The translations under genes and the position numbers were made by a program. 64,000 bases of DNA from an uncultured Gemmatimonadales bacterium (lineage in GTDB: Bacteria; Gemmatimonadota; Gemmatimonadetes; Gemmatimonadales; Gemmatimonadaceae). Location of the stretch: contig CAWBZV010000010.1 in assembly GCA_963793305.1 (NCBI GenBank), positions 1 to 64,000 of the forward strand, given 5' to 3'. Of the stretch, positions 13,775 through 58,153 are shown one piece after another. Below the pieces are notes generated by a model. It was not told where the DNA came from and did not search any database. It worked only from the letters and a program-made list of their open reading frames with translations. Every line of letters starts with the position of its first letter. The stretch's first letter is position 1.

Positions 13775-13870
13775 CCCGTTCGGCGGCTCGACCGGCCTGG
13801 CACGCGTGAGCGTGCGGTAGCCTCGGAGCTTTGCGTCGCCGCCTTTCGGCGGGTTTGCCCTTATCGCGGG
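13775..13870 (-). promoter_or_regulatory. c-di-GMP-I (GEMM) riboswitch
   Basis: Minus strand reads AAGGGCAAACCCGCC-GAAA-GGCGGCGACGCAAAGCTCCGAGGCTA...GCCGCCGAA, matching the GEMM core (GGCAAAC, GNRA-capped P2, GACGCAAAGC). It lies in the 5' leader of the DHOR gene. Confidence 0.9.
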
Positions 13871-32567: not shown

Positions 32568-33200
32568 TCAGCCGCGGCTGATCGACTCCGCAGCAGCGAT
32601 TGCCCACGCTGGATGCTGCCCATCCTCGATCGACCAGATCGCCGCCAGCACCGCTTGCGCAAAGGCCCAGCCCATGATCCGTTCGCGATCGAGGCCAAGG
32701 CGTTCCGCGATCACGCGGCTCCAGCGATCCACCACCGGCGTGCCGCTCACGTTCCGGAGTGCCGCGCCGAACTCGTACGGCAGCTCGCCGATGACGCCTT
32801 TTGGGTCGATCGCGAGCCAGCCTCGCGTCTCGTCGAACAGCACGTTTTGGGGATGCAGGTCGCCGTGCAATAGCGCGCGCGCGCCTTGGGATGCGGCAAG
32901 ATCACGGTAGAGCCTTTCGGCCCGGTCGACGAGCGCGGCGCCGATCGCGGCGTCTCCCGATGCGCGATACTGACCAAAGGACGCACCCCATGATTCGACC
33001 GTTGGCCACTCGCCGCTCGGGAGGCCACACGAATGCAACGCCGCGGCGACCTCGCCGAGCCGGATCGCCGCGTCGTCGGTGCGATCATCGAGCGGCGTTC
33101 CGGGCTGGACGCGCTGGAGGAATTGAACGCCATCGCGTTCGTCGAGCAGCCGGACGCAGCTCCGCCCATCAAAATGTCGAAGCGCGTCCGAGGAACGGTC
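32568..33200 (-). pseudogene. N-terminally truncated APH(6)/hydroxyurea-kinase family phosphotransferase
   Basis: ALRHFDG..CVRLL, LHGDLHPQNVL and WLAIDPKG. No start codon or N-lobe between it and the upstream stop at 33205. Confidence 0.7.
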
Positions 33201-33204
33201 GTCT

Positions 33205-33703
33205 TTACTTCGCCGCCGCTGCCAGACCATTCTGGAGGATGTTCCAACACTTTCTTGTATTCGTCGGCTGCTCCGCTTTGCACCGCGCCGACCATGCTCG
33301 ACGACGCGGAGTGTACTCCTCCGCCGGTGACCTGGAGCTGCTGCCACCCACCGGTGAGCATGACCCTGACCCGGGTTGAGCTCGGCCCGACGGACGTGAA
33401 CAGCGCCGTGCCTTCCTGCGTAATGTTGGAGTTGTTCTGCGTGGTGTCCGTCCACTGCTGGTAGAACACGATCAACCCTAGTTTCGCGTCGGCCGAGCGG
33501 ACAACGTAATCATTGTCCATCAGGACATTGATGACTTTGGGGAATACGGACTCGATCGGCGTCGCGATCACTCGGGTTTGTATGGCGCGAACCTGCGCCA
33601 CCTGCTCAGGCGTCGGGGTTGGTTCCGACCGTACGACGACTGGCCGCACGGTGCCACAGCCCGTCAGCATGCCTATCACGATCACCCACAGCGCGCCTTT
33701 CAT
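33205..33703 (-). CDS. hypothetical lipoprotein (+1 frameshift at ~33243)
   Basis: Lipobox LTGC; removing one base gives ...VLDILQNGLAAAAK* ending at 33205. Confidence 0.65.
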
Positions 33704-33760: not shown

Positions 33761-34561
33761 TCAGCCACGATGGCTGTGTGCTTCGTCGGGGAACGCCGAG
33801 GTGCGGACCTCGTCGGCGAACGTCGCGACCGCGTTCCGAACGGACGCCCCGAGCTCCGCGTAGCGCTTGACGAACTTGGCCTGGAACCGCTCGTTGAGTC
33901 CCAGCATGTCGTGGAGCACGAGCACCTGTCCATCGCAGCTCGGACCGGAGCCGATGCCGATCGTCGGAATTGTGACGCTGTCCGTCACGCGCTGCGCGGC
34001 GCTGATGGTCACGAATTCGAGCACGAGGGCGAACGCGCCGGCCTCTTCGAGCGCGCGCGCATCGTCGACGAGTCGCTCGATCGCATCGTCGCCCTTGCCC
34101 TGTAAATGGATGCCCTGCACGTTGAGCGACTGCGGCGTGAGCCCAATGTGGCCCATCACCGGCACGCCCGCGGTGACGAGCGCCTGCACCGCTGGCGCAA
34201 ACGCGCGTCCGCCTTCGAGCTTGACGGCGCCGGCCCCGGTGCGCTTGATGACGCGTCCGCCTTGCCGGGTCGCCTGGCGTGGCGACACGTGATAGCTCAT
34301 GAATGGGAGATCGACGACGACGAGCGCGTGCGCCGTGCCGCGTTGGACGCTCCGTCCGTGATAGATCATCTGGTTCACGGTGACCGGCACCGTCGACGGC
34401 TCCCCGGCCAGGACCGGGCCCACGGAGTCACCCACGAGGATCACGTCGACGCCCGCCTGGTCCACGAGTGATGCGAACAACGCGTCGTACGCAGTGATCA
34501 TGACGATCTTCTTCCCTTCTCGCTTCATTCCCGCGAGATCGGCCGCCGCCACGCGAGCCAT
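33761..34561 (-). CDS. panB: 3-methyl-2-oxobutanoate (ketopantoate) hydroxymethyltransferase
   Basis: TAYD, LVGDS, VKLEGG, MGHIGLTPQS, LVLE, IGIGSG and DGQVLV. Confidence 0.95.
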   Translation of the reverse strand: MARVAAADLAGMKREGKKIVMITAYDALFASLVDQAGVDVILVGDSVGPVLAGEPSTVPVTVNQMIYHGRSVQRGTAHALVVVDLPFMSYHVSPRQATRQGGRVIKRTGAGAVKLEGGRAFAPAVQALVTAGVPVMGHIGLTPQSLNVQGIHLQGKGDDAIERLVDDARALEEAGAFALVLEFVTISAAQRVTDSVTIPTIGIGSGPSCDGQVLVLHDMLGLNERFQAKFVKRYAELGASVRNAVATFADEVRTSAFPDEAHSHRG

Positions 34562-34764
34562 CAGCCCTCCGTCACGGTGATGCGGATGGCGCCCACCGGA
34601 CAGCGCTCGGCCGCCCGGCGGATGACGGCCTCGCTGGCGCCCGCGGGATCGATCACCTCCGACTGGCGATCGGCGTTATGCGCAAAGACCAATGGCGCGA
34701 CGATGAGACACGTCCCGTTGCCGACGCAGAGGTCATGGTCTACGAAGACGCGAAACGCTGGCAT
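34561..34764 (-). CDS. 3Fe-4S ferredoxin (P450 partner type)
   Basis: CVGNGTC...CPVGAI; its stop overlaps the panB start. Confidence 0.9.
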   Translation of the reverse strand: MPAFRVFVDHDLCVGNGTCLIVAPLVFAHNADRQSEVIDPAGASEAVIRRAAERCPVGAIRITVTEG

Positions 34765-34767
34765 CGC

Positions 34768-35979
34768 TTATCTCCATCGCACAGGCAGCGACCGCAGAGA
34801 TCGGAACTGAATGCTCGGTTCGTACTCGAGGCTCTGGGTGTCGAGCCGCATCCCGGGCAGGCGCTCGGCGAGGACTTGGAAGACCTCCTGGCCTTCGATG
34901 CGCGCCAGGGATGCGCCCAGGCAATAATGTATACCGGCGCCGAATGCGACATGCGGATTCGGCTGGCGGCTGATGTCGAAGGCGTCCGCGTTCGTGAATG
35001 CGGCCGGATCACGATTCGCCGACGCGATCATCCAGCGGATCCGGTCACCGCGGCGGATGTGCCGGCCACCCAATTCGACGTCGTCCGCGGCAATCCGCTG
35101 GGTGGACTTGACCGGCGGATCATAGCGCAGGCACTCCTCGGTCGCGAGGCGGGCATGCCGCGCTGGATCGCTCACCAGCCGCGCCCATTGATCCGGGTGT
35201 CGGAGAAAGGCGAGGACGCCATTGCAGATGAGATTCATGGTCGTCTCATGCCCCGCGAACAAGAGCAGCGCGGCGTTGACCAGCACCTGATGACGAGTGA
35301 ACACGCCGGCCTGCTCGCCGCCCGCGAGCACCGAAAGGAAATCCGTGGTCGGTTCGGTCATCCGCTGGTCGACCAATGGCGACACGTAGTCGATCATGCC
35401 GCGAATGCCTTCCGTGAGCGGTCGCAACCGATACGGCTCGCCCCGATTGATGTAGAGGAGCTTGTCCGCCAACGCGCGCAGATGGTCGCGATCGTGCTCC
35501 GGAACGCCCATCATCTGGGCGATCACTCGCACCGGGAGCGGCGCCGCGAGATCCCGGTGGACGTCCATCCGCCCCTCGGCGTCAACGGCATCGAGCAGCT
35601 CCGTGACCGCGGCGCGTACGAATGGCCGCCACGACTCCATCGCCCCTGGGGTGAAGTACTCGTGCACCACCTGCCGCATGGCGGCGTGCATGGGACGATC
35701 TTGCTCGACCAACTGATCGCCGCGGAACGACTGGACGCCGGAGAGCAACGGCAGGTCAGCCGCGTCGACGGGTGGATACGGCTGACGAGTGTCGGTCCGG
35801 ATGACGGCGGAGGAGAATCGTTCGTGGTTGCGCACCATCCACACGACGTTGTCGTACCGCGTGACGACCCAGAGCTGGAACGGCGCGTTCCAGTGCACCG
35901 GATCCTCGTCTCGCAGGCGGGCGAACAACGGATAGGGGTCGGCGATCACGGCCGGATCGAACAGCGCGTCGAGGTCCAT
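34768..35979 (-). CDS. cytochrome P450
   Basis: AGHETT, EECLR and FGAGIHYCLG. Confidence 0.96.
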   Translation of the reverse strand: MDLDALFDPAVIADPYPLFARLRDEDPVHWNAPFQLWVVTRYDNVVWMVRNHERFSSAVIRTDTRQPYPPVDAADLPLLSGVQSFRGDQLVEQDRPMHAAMRQVVHEYFTPGAMESWRPFVRAAVTELLDAVDAEGRMDVHRDLAAPLPVRVIAQMMGVPEHDRDHLRALADKLLYINRGEPYRLRPLTEGIRGMIDYVSPLVDQRMTEPTTDFLSVLAGGEQAGVFTRHQVLVNAALLLFAGHETTMNLICNGVLAFLRHPDQWARLVSDPARHARLATEECLRYDPPVKSTQRIAADDVELGGRHIRRGDRIRWMIASANRDPAAFTNADAFDISRQPNPHVAFGAGIHYCLGASLARIEGQEVFQVLAERLPGMRLDTQSLEYEPSIQFRSLRSLPVRWR

Positions 35980-36057
35980 CGACTTCTAGAATGGGTGCGG
36001 AACCGCCTATTCGCCAATATTATTGCATGCCGACTACCGATACGCATGACATTCTGG

Positions 36058-36951
36058 ATGCACATTACCCTCCGTCACCTGCGCTATTTCGTGGCGGTGG
36101 CGGAGGAGCTCCACTTCAGCCGGGCCGCGCGCCGGCTGAACGTCTCGCAACCGCCCCTGAGCCAGCAGATCCGGCAACTCGAGGACATCGTCGGCTCCGC
36201 GCTCTTCGTCCGCACGAGCCGGCGCGTGCAGCTCACGTCAGCCGGGCTGGCATTCCTGGACGGCACCCGGCGGTCGCTGGCCGAGGTCGCGCGCACGTTG
36301 GCCGCGGCGCAACACGCGGCGCATGGGGAGCGGGACATGCTGCGCGTTGGCTTCACCGACTCGGCGGCCCTGGGCGGACTTGTCGAGATCCTGCGCACCT
36401 ATCGCGTGGCGTATCCGGACGTGCACCTCGATCTCATCGAGGGCACGAGTCAGGCCCAGCTCGATGCGCTGGAGCGGGATACCGTCGATGTGGCGCTCGT
36501 GCGTGGCCCGGTCGCGTCGGTCACCGCGCGAACGGTGATTGTGCGGCGGGAGCCGTTCGAGGCGGCCGTCCCCGCCGATCATCCGTTGGCGAAGCGCCGC
36601 GTCGTCCCGCTGGCCGCTCTGCGCGGGCAGCCGTTCGTGCTCTTTCCTCGCCACCTCGCGCCGGCGTTCCACGACATCGTCACCGCGATGTGCCGGCGCG
36701 CCGGCTTCTCGCCCGAGGTTCGCCACGAGAGCGCGGACTACCAGACGATGTTGAGTCTCGTCGCGGCCGGTCTCGGCGTCACGATCGTGCCGGCCTCCGT
36801 GAGGAACTTGGGACGCATCGGCGTCGAGTTCCGGCCCCTCGCCGGGCCGAAGGTGATGGCGGAGCTCGCCCTCATGTACCGCCCGGCCCGCCTGTCGCGC
36901 GCACTGGAGGCGTTCATCGCGATCGCGAGCATGACGCCTGGCAGGAAATGA
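36058..36951 (+). CDS. LysR family transcriptional regulator
   Basis: LRHLRYFVAVAEELHFSRAARRLNVSQPPLSQQIRQLE; divergent from the P450 gene. Confidence 0.95.
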   Translation: MHITLRHLRYFVAVAEELHFSRAARRLNVSQPPLSQQIRQLEDIVGSALFVRTSRRVQLTSAGLAFLDGTRRSLAEVARTLAAAQHAAHGERDMLRVGFTDSAALGGLVEILRTYRVAYPDVHLDLIEGTSQAQLDALERDTVDVALVRGPVASVTARTVIVRREPFEAAVPADHPLAKRRVVPLAALRGQPFVLFPRHLAPAFHDIVTAMCRRAGFSPEVRHESADYQTMLSLVAAGLGVTIVPASVRNLGRIGVEFRPLAGPKVMAELALMYRPARLSRALEAFIAIASMTPGRK

Positions 36952-53911: not shown

Positions 53912-53985
53912 CGCGCCCGGAGAGACTCGAACTCCCAACCTTTTGATCCGTAGTCAAATGCTCTATCCAATTGAGCTACGGGCGC
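53912..53985 (-). tRNA. tRNA-Arg(ACG)
   Basis: Full cloverleaf; anticodon arm TTTGA-CTACGGA-TCAAA; CCA not encoded. Confidence 0.97.
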
Positions 53986-53998
53986 AATTGCGAATCCA

Positions 53999-54072
53999 TG
54001 GGCGGTACAAGACTCGAACTTGTGACCTCCACGATGTCAACGTGGCGCTCTAACCAACTGAGCTAACCGCCC
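53999..54072 (-). tRNA. tRNA-Val(GAC)
   Basis: Anticodon arm CCACG-TTGACAT-CGTGG. Confidence 0.97.
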
Positions 54073-54094
54073 CTGGCCCTGGCGGGCCCGACAG

Positions 54095-54167
<73 letters not shown>

Positions 54168-58079: not shown

Positions 58080-58153
58080 GCGCGCGTAGCTCAGCTGGAT
58101 AGAGCGTCGGCCTCCGGAGCCGAAGGTCGTGGGTTCGAATCCCGCCGCGCGCA
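58080..58153 (+). tRNA. tRNA-Arg(CCG)
   Basis: Anticodon arm TCGGC-CTCCGGA-GCCGA; T-loop GTTCGAAT. Confidence 0.97.

Follow-up and report, generated by a model that had tools for sequence, protein, structure and literature searches.

The 64,000-nucleotide stretch analysed here (the window; positions 1 to 64,000 of contig CAWBZV010000010.1, from an uncultured Gemmatimonadales bacterium, a soil member of the Gemmatimonadaceae) carries a row of three genes that encode a cytochrome P450, a small ferredoxin and a paralogue of PanB, the ketopantoate hydroxymethyltransferase (KPHMT) of pantothenate synthesis. It is clear that this block is patchy in its occurrence but very stable where it occurs. 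We tentatively propose that the operon removes the β-methyl carbon, or a tert-butyl methyl carbon, from branched 2-oxo acids, a chemistry that we infer from the genes and their distribution. The parts belong to known families; the combination, and a clade of PanB that is independent of pantothenate synthesis, are undescribed in the literature searched.

The genes lie in the order P450, ferredoxin, PanB, with a gene for a LysR-type regulator pointing away from them. An earlier note on this DNA had described such a row, with a 3-bp gap, a stop/start overlap and a divergent LysR gene, and all four genes were located as it claimed. Read directly on the minus strand, the P450 gene ends at a TAA stop that is followed by three bases and then the ferredoxin ATG; at the second junction, TGATG, the A of the ferredoxin stop codon TGA is common to the ATG of PanB, giving a 1-nt overlap. 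GGAG-type ribosome sites are found upstream of both the ferredoxin and the PanB starts. The row is probably a tightly packed accessory operon that is co-transcribed, and in the window PanB is predicted to be translationally coupled to the ferredoxin.

Relatives of the P450 were collected from one genome per species, which yielded 269 loci; the best 80 were analysed and comprise 56 from Gemmatimonadota, 22 from Actinomycetota and 2 from Rokubacteria. A ferredoxin gene follows the P450 at 79 of these 80 loci. The conservation of the P450-ferredoxin-PanB order, which the earlier note had proposed to search for, was borne out, with a PanB match at 47 of the 56 Gemmatimonadota loci: at 44 it is full-length, on the same strand and after the ferredoxin, and at three it is partial (two at a contig end, one broken). 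No PanB was found at eight of the 56, and one further contig is too short to show it. The gap between ferredoxin and PanB has a median of 58 bp (50 loci). The flanking genes vary by lineage while the block persists, and it is kept across P450 divergence down to 62% identity. Furthermore, the pairwise identities of P450 and PanB co-vary (Spearman 0.63 over 50 loci, the pairs not being independent). Where insertions have split the block, the ferredoxin remains with PanB at two loci (L035 and L054) and with the P450 at another (L023).

An unbiased sample of 121 Gemmatimonadota genomes, each at least 85% complete, was also surveyed, with a threshold of E≤1e-100 for a P450 orthologue. PanB was found in 99 of these genomes, PanC in 94 and the P450 orthologue in 6; in all six P450-bearing genomes a PanB gene lies within 400 bp downstream of the P450-ferredoxin pair. 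This adjacency of P450 and PanB is far beyond chance. The PanB paralogue was always found beside the ferredoxin, at 51 of 51 loci overall, a count that is biased because most members of the clade were gathered via the P450 search, and at 7 of 7 in the unbiased census, the genome G062 (discussed below) included. The patchy occurrence (6 of the 121 genomes) agrees with the earlier description of the surroundings as an accessory region; the base composition does not, the GC content of the stretch being not unusual.

The genome to which the window belongs (an assembly of 5.7 Mb in 26 contigs, 92% complete, with 5% contamination) has a second PanB. This is encoded on contig C5 as part of a folB/folK-panB-panC operon and shares 54% identity with the window PanB. 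The check for a housekeeping panB that had been suggested thus had a positive outcome: the C5 gene is the housekeeping copy and the window PanB an extra one. No panC is present in the window, in keeping with the claim that none lies near the row, and the only PanC of the genome is on C5. In a maximum-likelihood tree of 96 PanB sequences (50 P450-linked, 33 panC-linked and 13 others; midpoint-rooted only) the 50 P450-linked proteins fall on one side of a branch with an ultrafast bootstrap value (UFBoot) of 94 and an SH-like approximate likelihood-ratio value (SH-aLRT) of 92, and they do so in 92% of 200 bootstrap trees. The tree that the earlier note had called for therefore gives the linked copies a clade of their own, apart from the panC-linked copies. 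In the drawn quick tree the P450-linked PanBs are placed among panC-linked copies of the same phylum, which suggests that the duplication of PanB took place within the phylum. A census of 113 PanB matches comprised 83 within 2 kb of PanC, 6 linked to the P450, 11 of a third clade and 13 that were neither; none of the six P450-linked copies is within 2 kb of PanC. Most of the 13 unlinked PanBs are housekeeping copies of a distant family, around 50% identical to both types.

The third PanB clade is an observation in its own right. It is well separated, and 11 of the 121 Gemmatimonadota genomes in the sample have it (loci L119 and L121-L130; for example L128:1778-7001). In the loci scanned for genes it stands in a cluster that encodes a class I/II aminotransferase, PanB, a ThrC-like pyridoxal phosphate (PLP) enzyme (TIGR00260, 249 bits), a ThiS-like protein and a ThiF/MoeZ-rhodanese protein, and in one genome (G053) the third-clade PanB is present without PanC. 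These proteins could join a 2-oxo acid and a one-carbon (C1) unit into a homoserine-like acid, followed by thiocarboxylate-dependent insertion of sulfur.

The window PanB itself has a canonical appearance. It matches PF02548 with 357.7 bits (cut-off 28.7) over profile positions 2-258 of 259, and it scores above the NCBIfam panB equivalog TIGR00222 (322.4 bits; cut-off 207.55). Its residues D45, S46, D84, K114, E116, H138 and E182 align with the metal- and substrate-binding residues of the solved E. coli and M. tuberculosis enzymes (1M3U and 1OY0); in E. coli numbering the metal and catalytic residues of KPHMT are Asp45, Ser46, Asp84, Lys112, Glu114, His136 and Glu181. These positions are invariant in 50 of 50 clade members, with the exception of E182, which is kept in 45 of the 50. 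Only the positions G69, E54 and F141 separate the clade from the panC-linked copies, and none of them is catalytic.

Such a protein could be a plain second isozyme of pantothenate synthesis that is co-expressed with the P450 by happenstance. That it passes the panB equivalog model is consistent with this, as is the genome G125, where the linked PanB is the sole PanB and PanC is found elsewhere, so that it can feed pantothenate synthesis. For the same reason, the linked PanB is predicted to retain ordinary ketopantoate/ketoisovalerate chemistry. The distribution of PanC, however, argues against an isozyme. A search of 11 module-bearing genomes located PanC in four of them (G000, G082, G084 and G125) and did not find it in the other seven: G056, G080 and G098, which belong to one genus, and G121-G124, Longimicrobiales with single chromosomes. 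Of these seven, G098 is in 3 contigs and each of the other six is a single contig or a single-chromosome record. In all seven the P450-linked PanB is the only PanB. No archaeal-type phosphopantothenate synthetase was found in any of the five PanC-less genomes examined for it, and PanE-family reductases are present in five of those five. Furthermore, the panC-bearing genomes G000, G082 and G084 keep a separate panB-panC pair, and the linked PanBs form a separate clade. An isozyme is therefore rather improbable and, since 7 of the 11 module genomes lack a detectable PanC, the linked PanB is likely to work outside pantothenate synthesis. A role in pantothenate synthesis would be recognised by linkage to panC or co-occurrence with it; the window PanB is not beside panC, which in this genome accompanies the other panB, and its P450-linked counterparts persist where PanC was not found. 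As to the phylum at large, 22 of the 121 sampled genomes are without PanB and 27 without PanC, single-contig genomes included; pantothenate auxotrophy seems to be common in Gemmatimonadota.

A short amino-acid dehydrogenase of the ELFV family (Leu/Val/Phe type) lies within 4 kb of the P450 at 41 of the 56 Gemmatimonadota loci and at none of the 24 loci from other phyla. Among NCBIfam models it comes closest to tryptophan dehydrogenase, with a score below the cut-off. The position of this gene relative to the block is variable, and it is also present at 5 of the 8 loci without PanB. It was absent within 6-7 kb at L113 and L115-L117 and from the 5.5-kb contig L114, and it was not found near the operon in the G082 or g51 genomes. 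Two of these genomes have other genes beside PanB. In the closed g51 genome G056 a zinc-type medium-chain dehydrogenase (L117:9168-10151) lies around 150 bp downstream of PanB on the same strand, with a PanE-family gene around 12.5 kb beyond it; in G082 a group II PLP-dependent decarboxylase (L004:9490-11013) lies around 1 kb downstream of the P450-linked PanB. Some group II PLP-dependent decarboxylases make β-alanine.

Four features taken together, namely the asymmetric arrangement, the close packing of the genes, the dehydrogenase and the missing PanC, lead us to propose that PanB acts on a product of the P450 system within the metabolism of branched-chain amino or 2-oxo acids. In the first step the dehydrogenase would act on an amino acid of the valine, isoleucine or tert-leucine type and yield the corresponding 2-oxo acid. 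The P450 and ferredoxin would then hydroxylate a β-methyl group to give a 3-hydroxymethyl 2-oxo acid, which would be ketopantoate if the substrate is trimethylpyruvate. Finally PanB, working in reverse, would catalyse a retro-aldol cleavage to a shorter 2-oxo acid and 5,10-methylene-tetrahydrofolate (methylene-THF). A place for PanB after the P450 fits the asymmetry in the genomes, where the P450-ferredoxin pair can stand alone and PanB is always beside the ferredoxin. It is known from classical enzymology that the PanB reaction is reversible. According to one report (PMC10127515), the PanB of E. coli is tolerant of many different 2-oxo acids and carries out the retro-aldol reaction as well. 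In the tert-butyl case, trimethylpyruvate would pass through ketopantoate to ketoisovalerate; this would require no change in the specificity of PanB, and would fit both the unchanged active site and the patchy, niche-like distribution of the block. The skeletons of valine and isoleucine would be the commoner candidate substrates. The earlier note had read the row in this tert-butyl sense, with PanB removing the hydroxymethyl group that the P450 had made, and this reading is partly supported: its genomic predictions hold, none of the refuting conditions that it named and that could be examined in silico went against it, and its substrate chemistry remains a proposal.

Several observations weigh against such a demethylation. 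The P450-ferredoxin pair occurs without PanB at 22 of 22 Actinomycetota loci, at both Rokubacteria loci and at 8 of the 56 Gemmatimonadota loci. In three actinobacterial genomes an ordinary panB-panC pair is found elsewhere, and in four Gemmatimonadota bins that have the P450-ferredoxin pair and no linked PanB, the only PanB is panC-linked. The two Rokubacteria genomes (6.7 and 4.1 Mb, of unknown completeness) show neither PanB nor PanC, and the P450 would therefore work there without any PanB. Conversely, the closed genome G062 (L133, G062:C1:548000-560000) keeps the ferredoxin, PanB and a convergent amino-acid dehydrogenase, and the P450 is gone. As in the relatives of G062, a MutS-like gene and an M28 peptidase gene adjoin this locus, and its PanB shares 80% identity with a linked copy; neither a P450 gene nor PanC was found anywhere in this closed genome. 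Since the P450-ferredoxin pair occurs without PanB, and G062 keeps ferredoxin and PanB without the P450, the coupling of P450 and PanB is not obligatory. In the window genome no dehydrogenase is found near the operon, the sole good ELFV match being on contig C3. Methylmalonate-semialdehyde dehydrogenase (MMSDH), a marker of the canonical valine route, scores above cut-off in G062 and in all but one of 6 module genomes; therefore the block is no replacement for that route, and complementarity with canonical valine catabolism was not seen. There is no clear specificity-changing substitution in the PanB clade. The P450s of known structure that come closest (34-37% identity) have macrolides, acyl-ACP and fatty acids as substrates rather than small polar acids. 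Finally, free tert-butyl 2-oxo acids are rare in nature.

Much of this could also be explained by two independent units that are neighbours from shared descent or shared regulation only. The P450 and ferredoxin would oxidise an unrelated, probably lipophilic substrate, and PanB and the dehydrogenase would interconvert valine, ketoisovalerate, ketopantoate and pantoate, for example in the salvage or breakdown of pantoate. The solitary P450-ferredoxin pairs, at 24 of 24 loci outside Gemmatimonadota and 8 of 56 inside, are as expected from independent units, as are the ferredoxin, PanB and dehydrogenase genes of G062 without a P450 and the Rokubacteria with a P450 and no PanB or PanC. A lipophilic substrate would suit a protein whose closest solved relatives are PikC, BioI and CYP109, with CYP107-like relatives besides, and the PanE-family reductases in five of five PanC-less genomes make an interconversion of pantoate and ketopantoate possible. 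However, the paralogue was never found away from the ferredoxin of the P450 (51 of 51). PanB is, moreover, apparently coupled in translation to the ferredoxin in the window and fused to it in one lineage, and the block is kept despite changes in its flanks and the divergence of the P450 to 62% identity; it is unlikely that a PanB duplicate landed by chance behind the P450 and was retained in two orders. We consider independent units possible, if doubtful.

Alternatively, the order of the steps may be anabolic. PanB would then run forwards, which is its normal direction and one that its canonical active site allows, to make a 4-hydroxy 2-oxo acid such as ketopantoate from a 2-oxo acid and methylene-THF; the dehydrogenase would aminate this to a γ-hydroxy amino acid, and the P450 would tailor a small metabolite. 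The aminotransferase and ThrC-like enzyme of the third clade suggest that products of PanB are aminated elsewhere in the phylum, and the retention of PanB and dehydrogenase without a P450 in G062 would be consistent with such a role. When the 80 loci were clustered, however, no ligase, non-ribosomal peptide synthetase (NRPS) or export gene was found to be conserved with the block. A P450 that is found alone in other phyla, even in genomes without any PanB, also misfits one that depends on a PanB product, and we regard the anabolic order as unlikely.

A further possibility, which the earlier note had raised as a way for PanB to absorb C1 units, is that the P450 acts as an O- or N-demethylase and sets formaldehyde free, the C1 unit then being caught by PanB on ketoisovalerate supplied by the dehydrogenase. 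This would account for PanB being optional for the P450 in other phyla. It would also draw on an activity of E. coli PanB, which condenses free formaldehyde with 2-oxo acids, as given in the same report (PMC10127515). Such a sink would, however, cost one valine for each C1 unit and would have no known outlet where PanC is missing, and none of the 60 listed best PDB matches to the P450 is named as a known P450 O-demethylase such as GcoA or CYP199A4. Furthermore, formaldehyde that is bound to tetrahydrofolate (THF) is already harmless and useful. A C1 sink is thus very unlikely, and removal of a methyl branch through the P450 and a reversed PanB remains our preferred, tentative proposal.

The P450 matches Pfam PF00067 with 82.3 bits (cut-off 22.8). 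Its ExxR motif is EECLR (281-285; E281-R285), its I-helix motif AGHETT (242-247) and its Cys loop FGAGIHYCLG (346-355); these signatures are mostly invariant across 19 orthologues and are predicted to be those of a working monooxygenase. Among the best 80 of the 269 loci, which span three phyla, orthologues share 67-98% identity with it. The closest of them (98%) is in a Gemmatimonadaceae bin, and the close relatives come from Gemmatimonadota metagenome bins. An AlphaFold2 (AF2) model, with a mean confidence (pLDDT) of 85.7, has PikC, BioI and CalO2 as its top Foldseek matches, with a full-length fold, template-modelling (TM) scores of 0.84-0.88 and 34-37% identity. Members of the same CYP family share at least 40% identity by the rules of nomenclature. 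At less than 40% identity to any solved structure, the P450 is to be classed, on sequence, as a family of its own relative to them. In each of two trees of the P450, the Actinomycetota fall into a single shallow clade (support 100), next to which stands a subclade of Gemmatimonadota (91). This hints at a transfer of the P450-ferredoxin pair out of Gemmatimonadota, in trees whose outgroup branch is very long and whose starred branches force no nesting.

The best match in a PDB sequence search with the P450 is BioI (248 bits), one homologue is labelled pimeloyl-ACP synthase in a JGI record, and the nearest ESM Atlas cluster, among clusters that are otherwise generic P450s only, is auto-named after a biotin P450. 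All three would suit a BioI-like pimeloyl-ACP synthase for biotin. The identity to the BioI structures 3EJB, 3EJD and 3EJE is, however, 34-35%, which is below the level of a shared CYP family, and no biotin gene is found among the conserved neighbours in the 80 loci, which were clustered and scanned with Pfam; it is extremely improbable that the P450 has this function. As a general role it was rejected because only two of five module genomes have a BioB match above cut-off, G084, G056 and G098 having none. A separate observation concerns the genome G000, where two BioB matches were obtained (G000:C3:1442484-1443392 and G000:C7:3537-4445; 389.8 and 389.5 bits). Their cause may be a duplication of the stretch or, given the 5% contamination of the bin, redundancy of strains.

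The ferredoxin (Fer4_13, 40.2 bits) has three cysteines only, in the arrangement C13-x2-N16-x2-C19 ... C55-P56, and 83 of 85 homologues share the CxxNxxC motif, in which Asn takes the second position. This three-Cys pattern, CxxNxxC...CP, agrees with the earlier assignment and is predictive of a ferredoxin of the 3Fe-4S type, which is likely to be the electron donor of the P450. No reductase gene was found near the pair. A database protein, P0124 (a cluster of 5 members from 2 contigs), is an in-frame ferredoxin-PanB open reading frame of 345 aa (PF13370 and PF02548), whose ferredoxin part is 75% identical to the window ferredoxin. It represents the overlapping gene pair of the window as a natural fusion or a read-through, and is the only one of its kind, no such fusion being present among the collected loci. 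A second candidate, P0125, was discarded as a frameshifted P450-ferredoxin read-through, which is uninformative.

The coordinates of the operon and of its regulator are collected in the table. The open reading frame at 34678-36951 (+) holds the LysR domains and the true start of the protein is the ATG at 36058; the Pfam matches are HTH_1 (86.2 bits) and LysR_substrate (157.9 bits), and the NCBIfam matches are all below threshold (AlsR, 270.7 bits against a cut-off of 430). The spacer between the P450 and LysR genes contains an 11-bp palindrome, CAATATTATTG (36015-36025), which is kept in all four LysR-bearing loci aligned (the window, L003, L006 and L007) and is a likely candidate operator. 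In the window genome the divergent LysR protein probably induces the operon via this conserved palindrome. The earlier description of the operon as controlled by LysR agrees with the divergent gene and the palindrome, and does not extend beyond the closest relatives, since a LysR gene adjoins the P450 at only 3 of the 80 related loci (L003, L006 and L007); in other lineages an HTH_20 regulator is found in its place.

Table. Positions of the three genes of the operon, the spacer and the divergent regulator in the window
Feature	Position	Strand	Remarks
Cytochrome P450, 403 aa	34768..35979	-	first gene of the row; Pfam PF00067
Small ferredoxin, 67 aa	34561..34764	-	middle gene; Pfam Fer4_13, Fer4_15, Fer4_19
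PanB paralogue, 266 aa	33761..34561	-	third gene; PF02548 and TIGR00222
Divergent control region, 78 bp	35980..36057	.	spacer between P450 and LysR genes
LysR-type transcriptional regulator, 297 aa	36058..36951	+	HTH_1 and LysR_substrate

Other signals in and around the operon were few. No riboswitch or leader was found upstream in the operon at Rfam gathering scores, the sigma-70 promoter consensus had no match in the operon region (0.6 expected), and terminator-like sites (2, against 1.9 expected) were not in excess. A 236-nt contig from one soil metatranscriptome library is 98% identical to part of the P450 gene; since library contigs may contain DNA, neither transcription nor an operon can be concluded from it. 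Downstream of panB and on the same strand, a gene at 32568-33455 (-) encodes a phosphotransferase of the APH(6)/hydroxyurea-kinase family (PF04655, E 8e-26). Elsewhere in the window are a c-di-GMP-I riboswitch aptamer at 13779-13869 (-) (66 bits; gathering score 35) and three tandem tRNA genes at 53912-54167 (-), with one further tRNA gene nearby at 58080-58153 (+).

If the proposal is correct, these bacteria would be able to cleave bonds at quaternary and tertiary carbon centres and to recover the methyl branch in the form of a C1 unit. PanB would then have its first catabolic role, and skeletons of the tert-leucine type their first route; the reaction would also offer a mild biocatalysis for taking methyl branches off crowded carbons or putting them on, and give carbon a new way into the folate pool. 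More specifically, the block may represent a natural two-enzyme oxidative C-demethylation, in which hydroxylation of a β-methyl group by the P450 is followed by a dedicated reverse PanB that passes the carbon to THF, an idea that is credible to us though still doubtful. PanB is treated as a single-purpose enzyme of vitamin B5 synthesis, and automatic annotation would score the present gene as pantothenate synthesis; a canonical-looking PanB in closed genomes without PanC flags a wrong metabolic inference for Gemmatimonadota. The finding also suggests that THF-dependent aldol chemistry has a use, so far undescribed, in following up the work of a P450. The P450 is a well-conserved orphan family with a ready-made redox partner, and hence easy to test.

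A full-text search of the literature returned no paper on a P450-PanB operon, on an orphan PanB paralogue or on the P450s of this phylum; a match to “panB” in PMC6273641 was discarded as an author's name. Nor was a two-enzyme route of a P450 and a THF-dependent retro-aldol cleavage described in the full-text literature searched.

The system is best understood beside those that it resembles. The window-type PanB is like canonical PanB/KPHMT (EC 2.1.2.11; 1M3U, 1OY0) in its full-length match, its passing of the equivalog model and its aligned metal and catalytic residues; it differs in that it belongs to a separate clade, is never panC-linked, is always behind the ferredoxin of the P450 and is kept in genomes without PanC. 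The front of the operon is like the class I P450s that are paired with a small 3Fe-4S ferredoxin, having a ferredoxin of around 65 aa directly after the P450, the pattern CxxXxxC...CP with a second position other than Cys, and no reductase. Such pairs of a P450 and an adjacent 3Fe-4S ferredoxin are known from actinobacteria, for example in the CYP51 neighbourhood of M. tuberculosis. Here, in contrast, a third gene, PanB, from central C1 and branched-chain metabolism, is predicted to be coupled to the ferredoxin, and the P450 has less than 40% identity to those of solved structure. BioI (CYP107H1) and PikC (CYP107L1) are the best sequence and fold matches of the P450, which nevertheless differs from them in its 34-37% identity, in the lack of a biotin or polyketide context and in its occurrence in genomes without BioB. 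For the logic of the proposed route the nearest analogy, and it is one of logic only, is a combination of serine hydroxymethyltransferase with CYP51, in which activation of a C-methyl group by a P450 would be joined to the transfer of a hydroxymethyl group to THF. In the 14α-demethylation of sterols CYP51 carries out three oxidations and formate is released, whereas the route proposed here would need one hydroxylation, after which PanB would deliver the carbon as methylene-THF.

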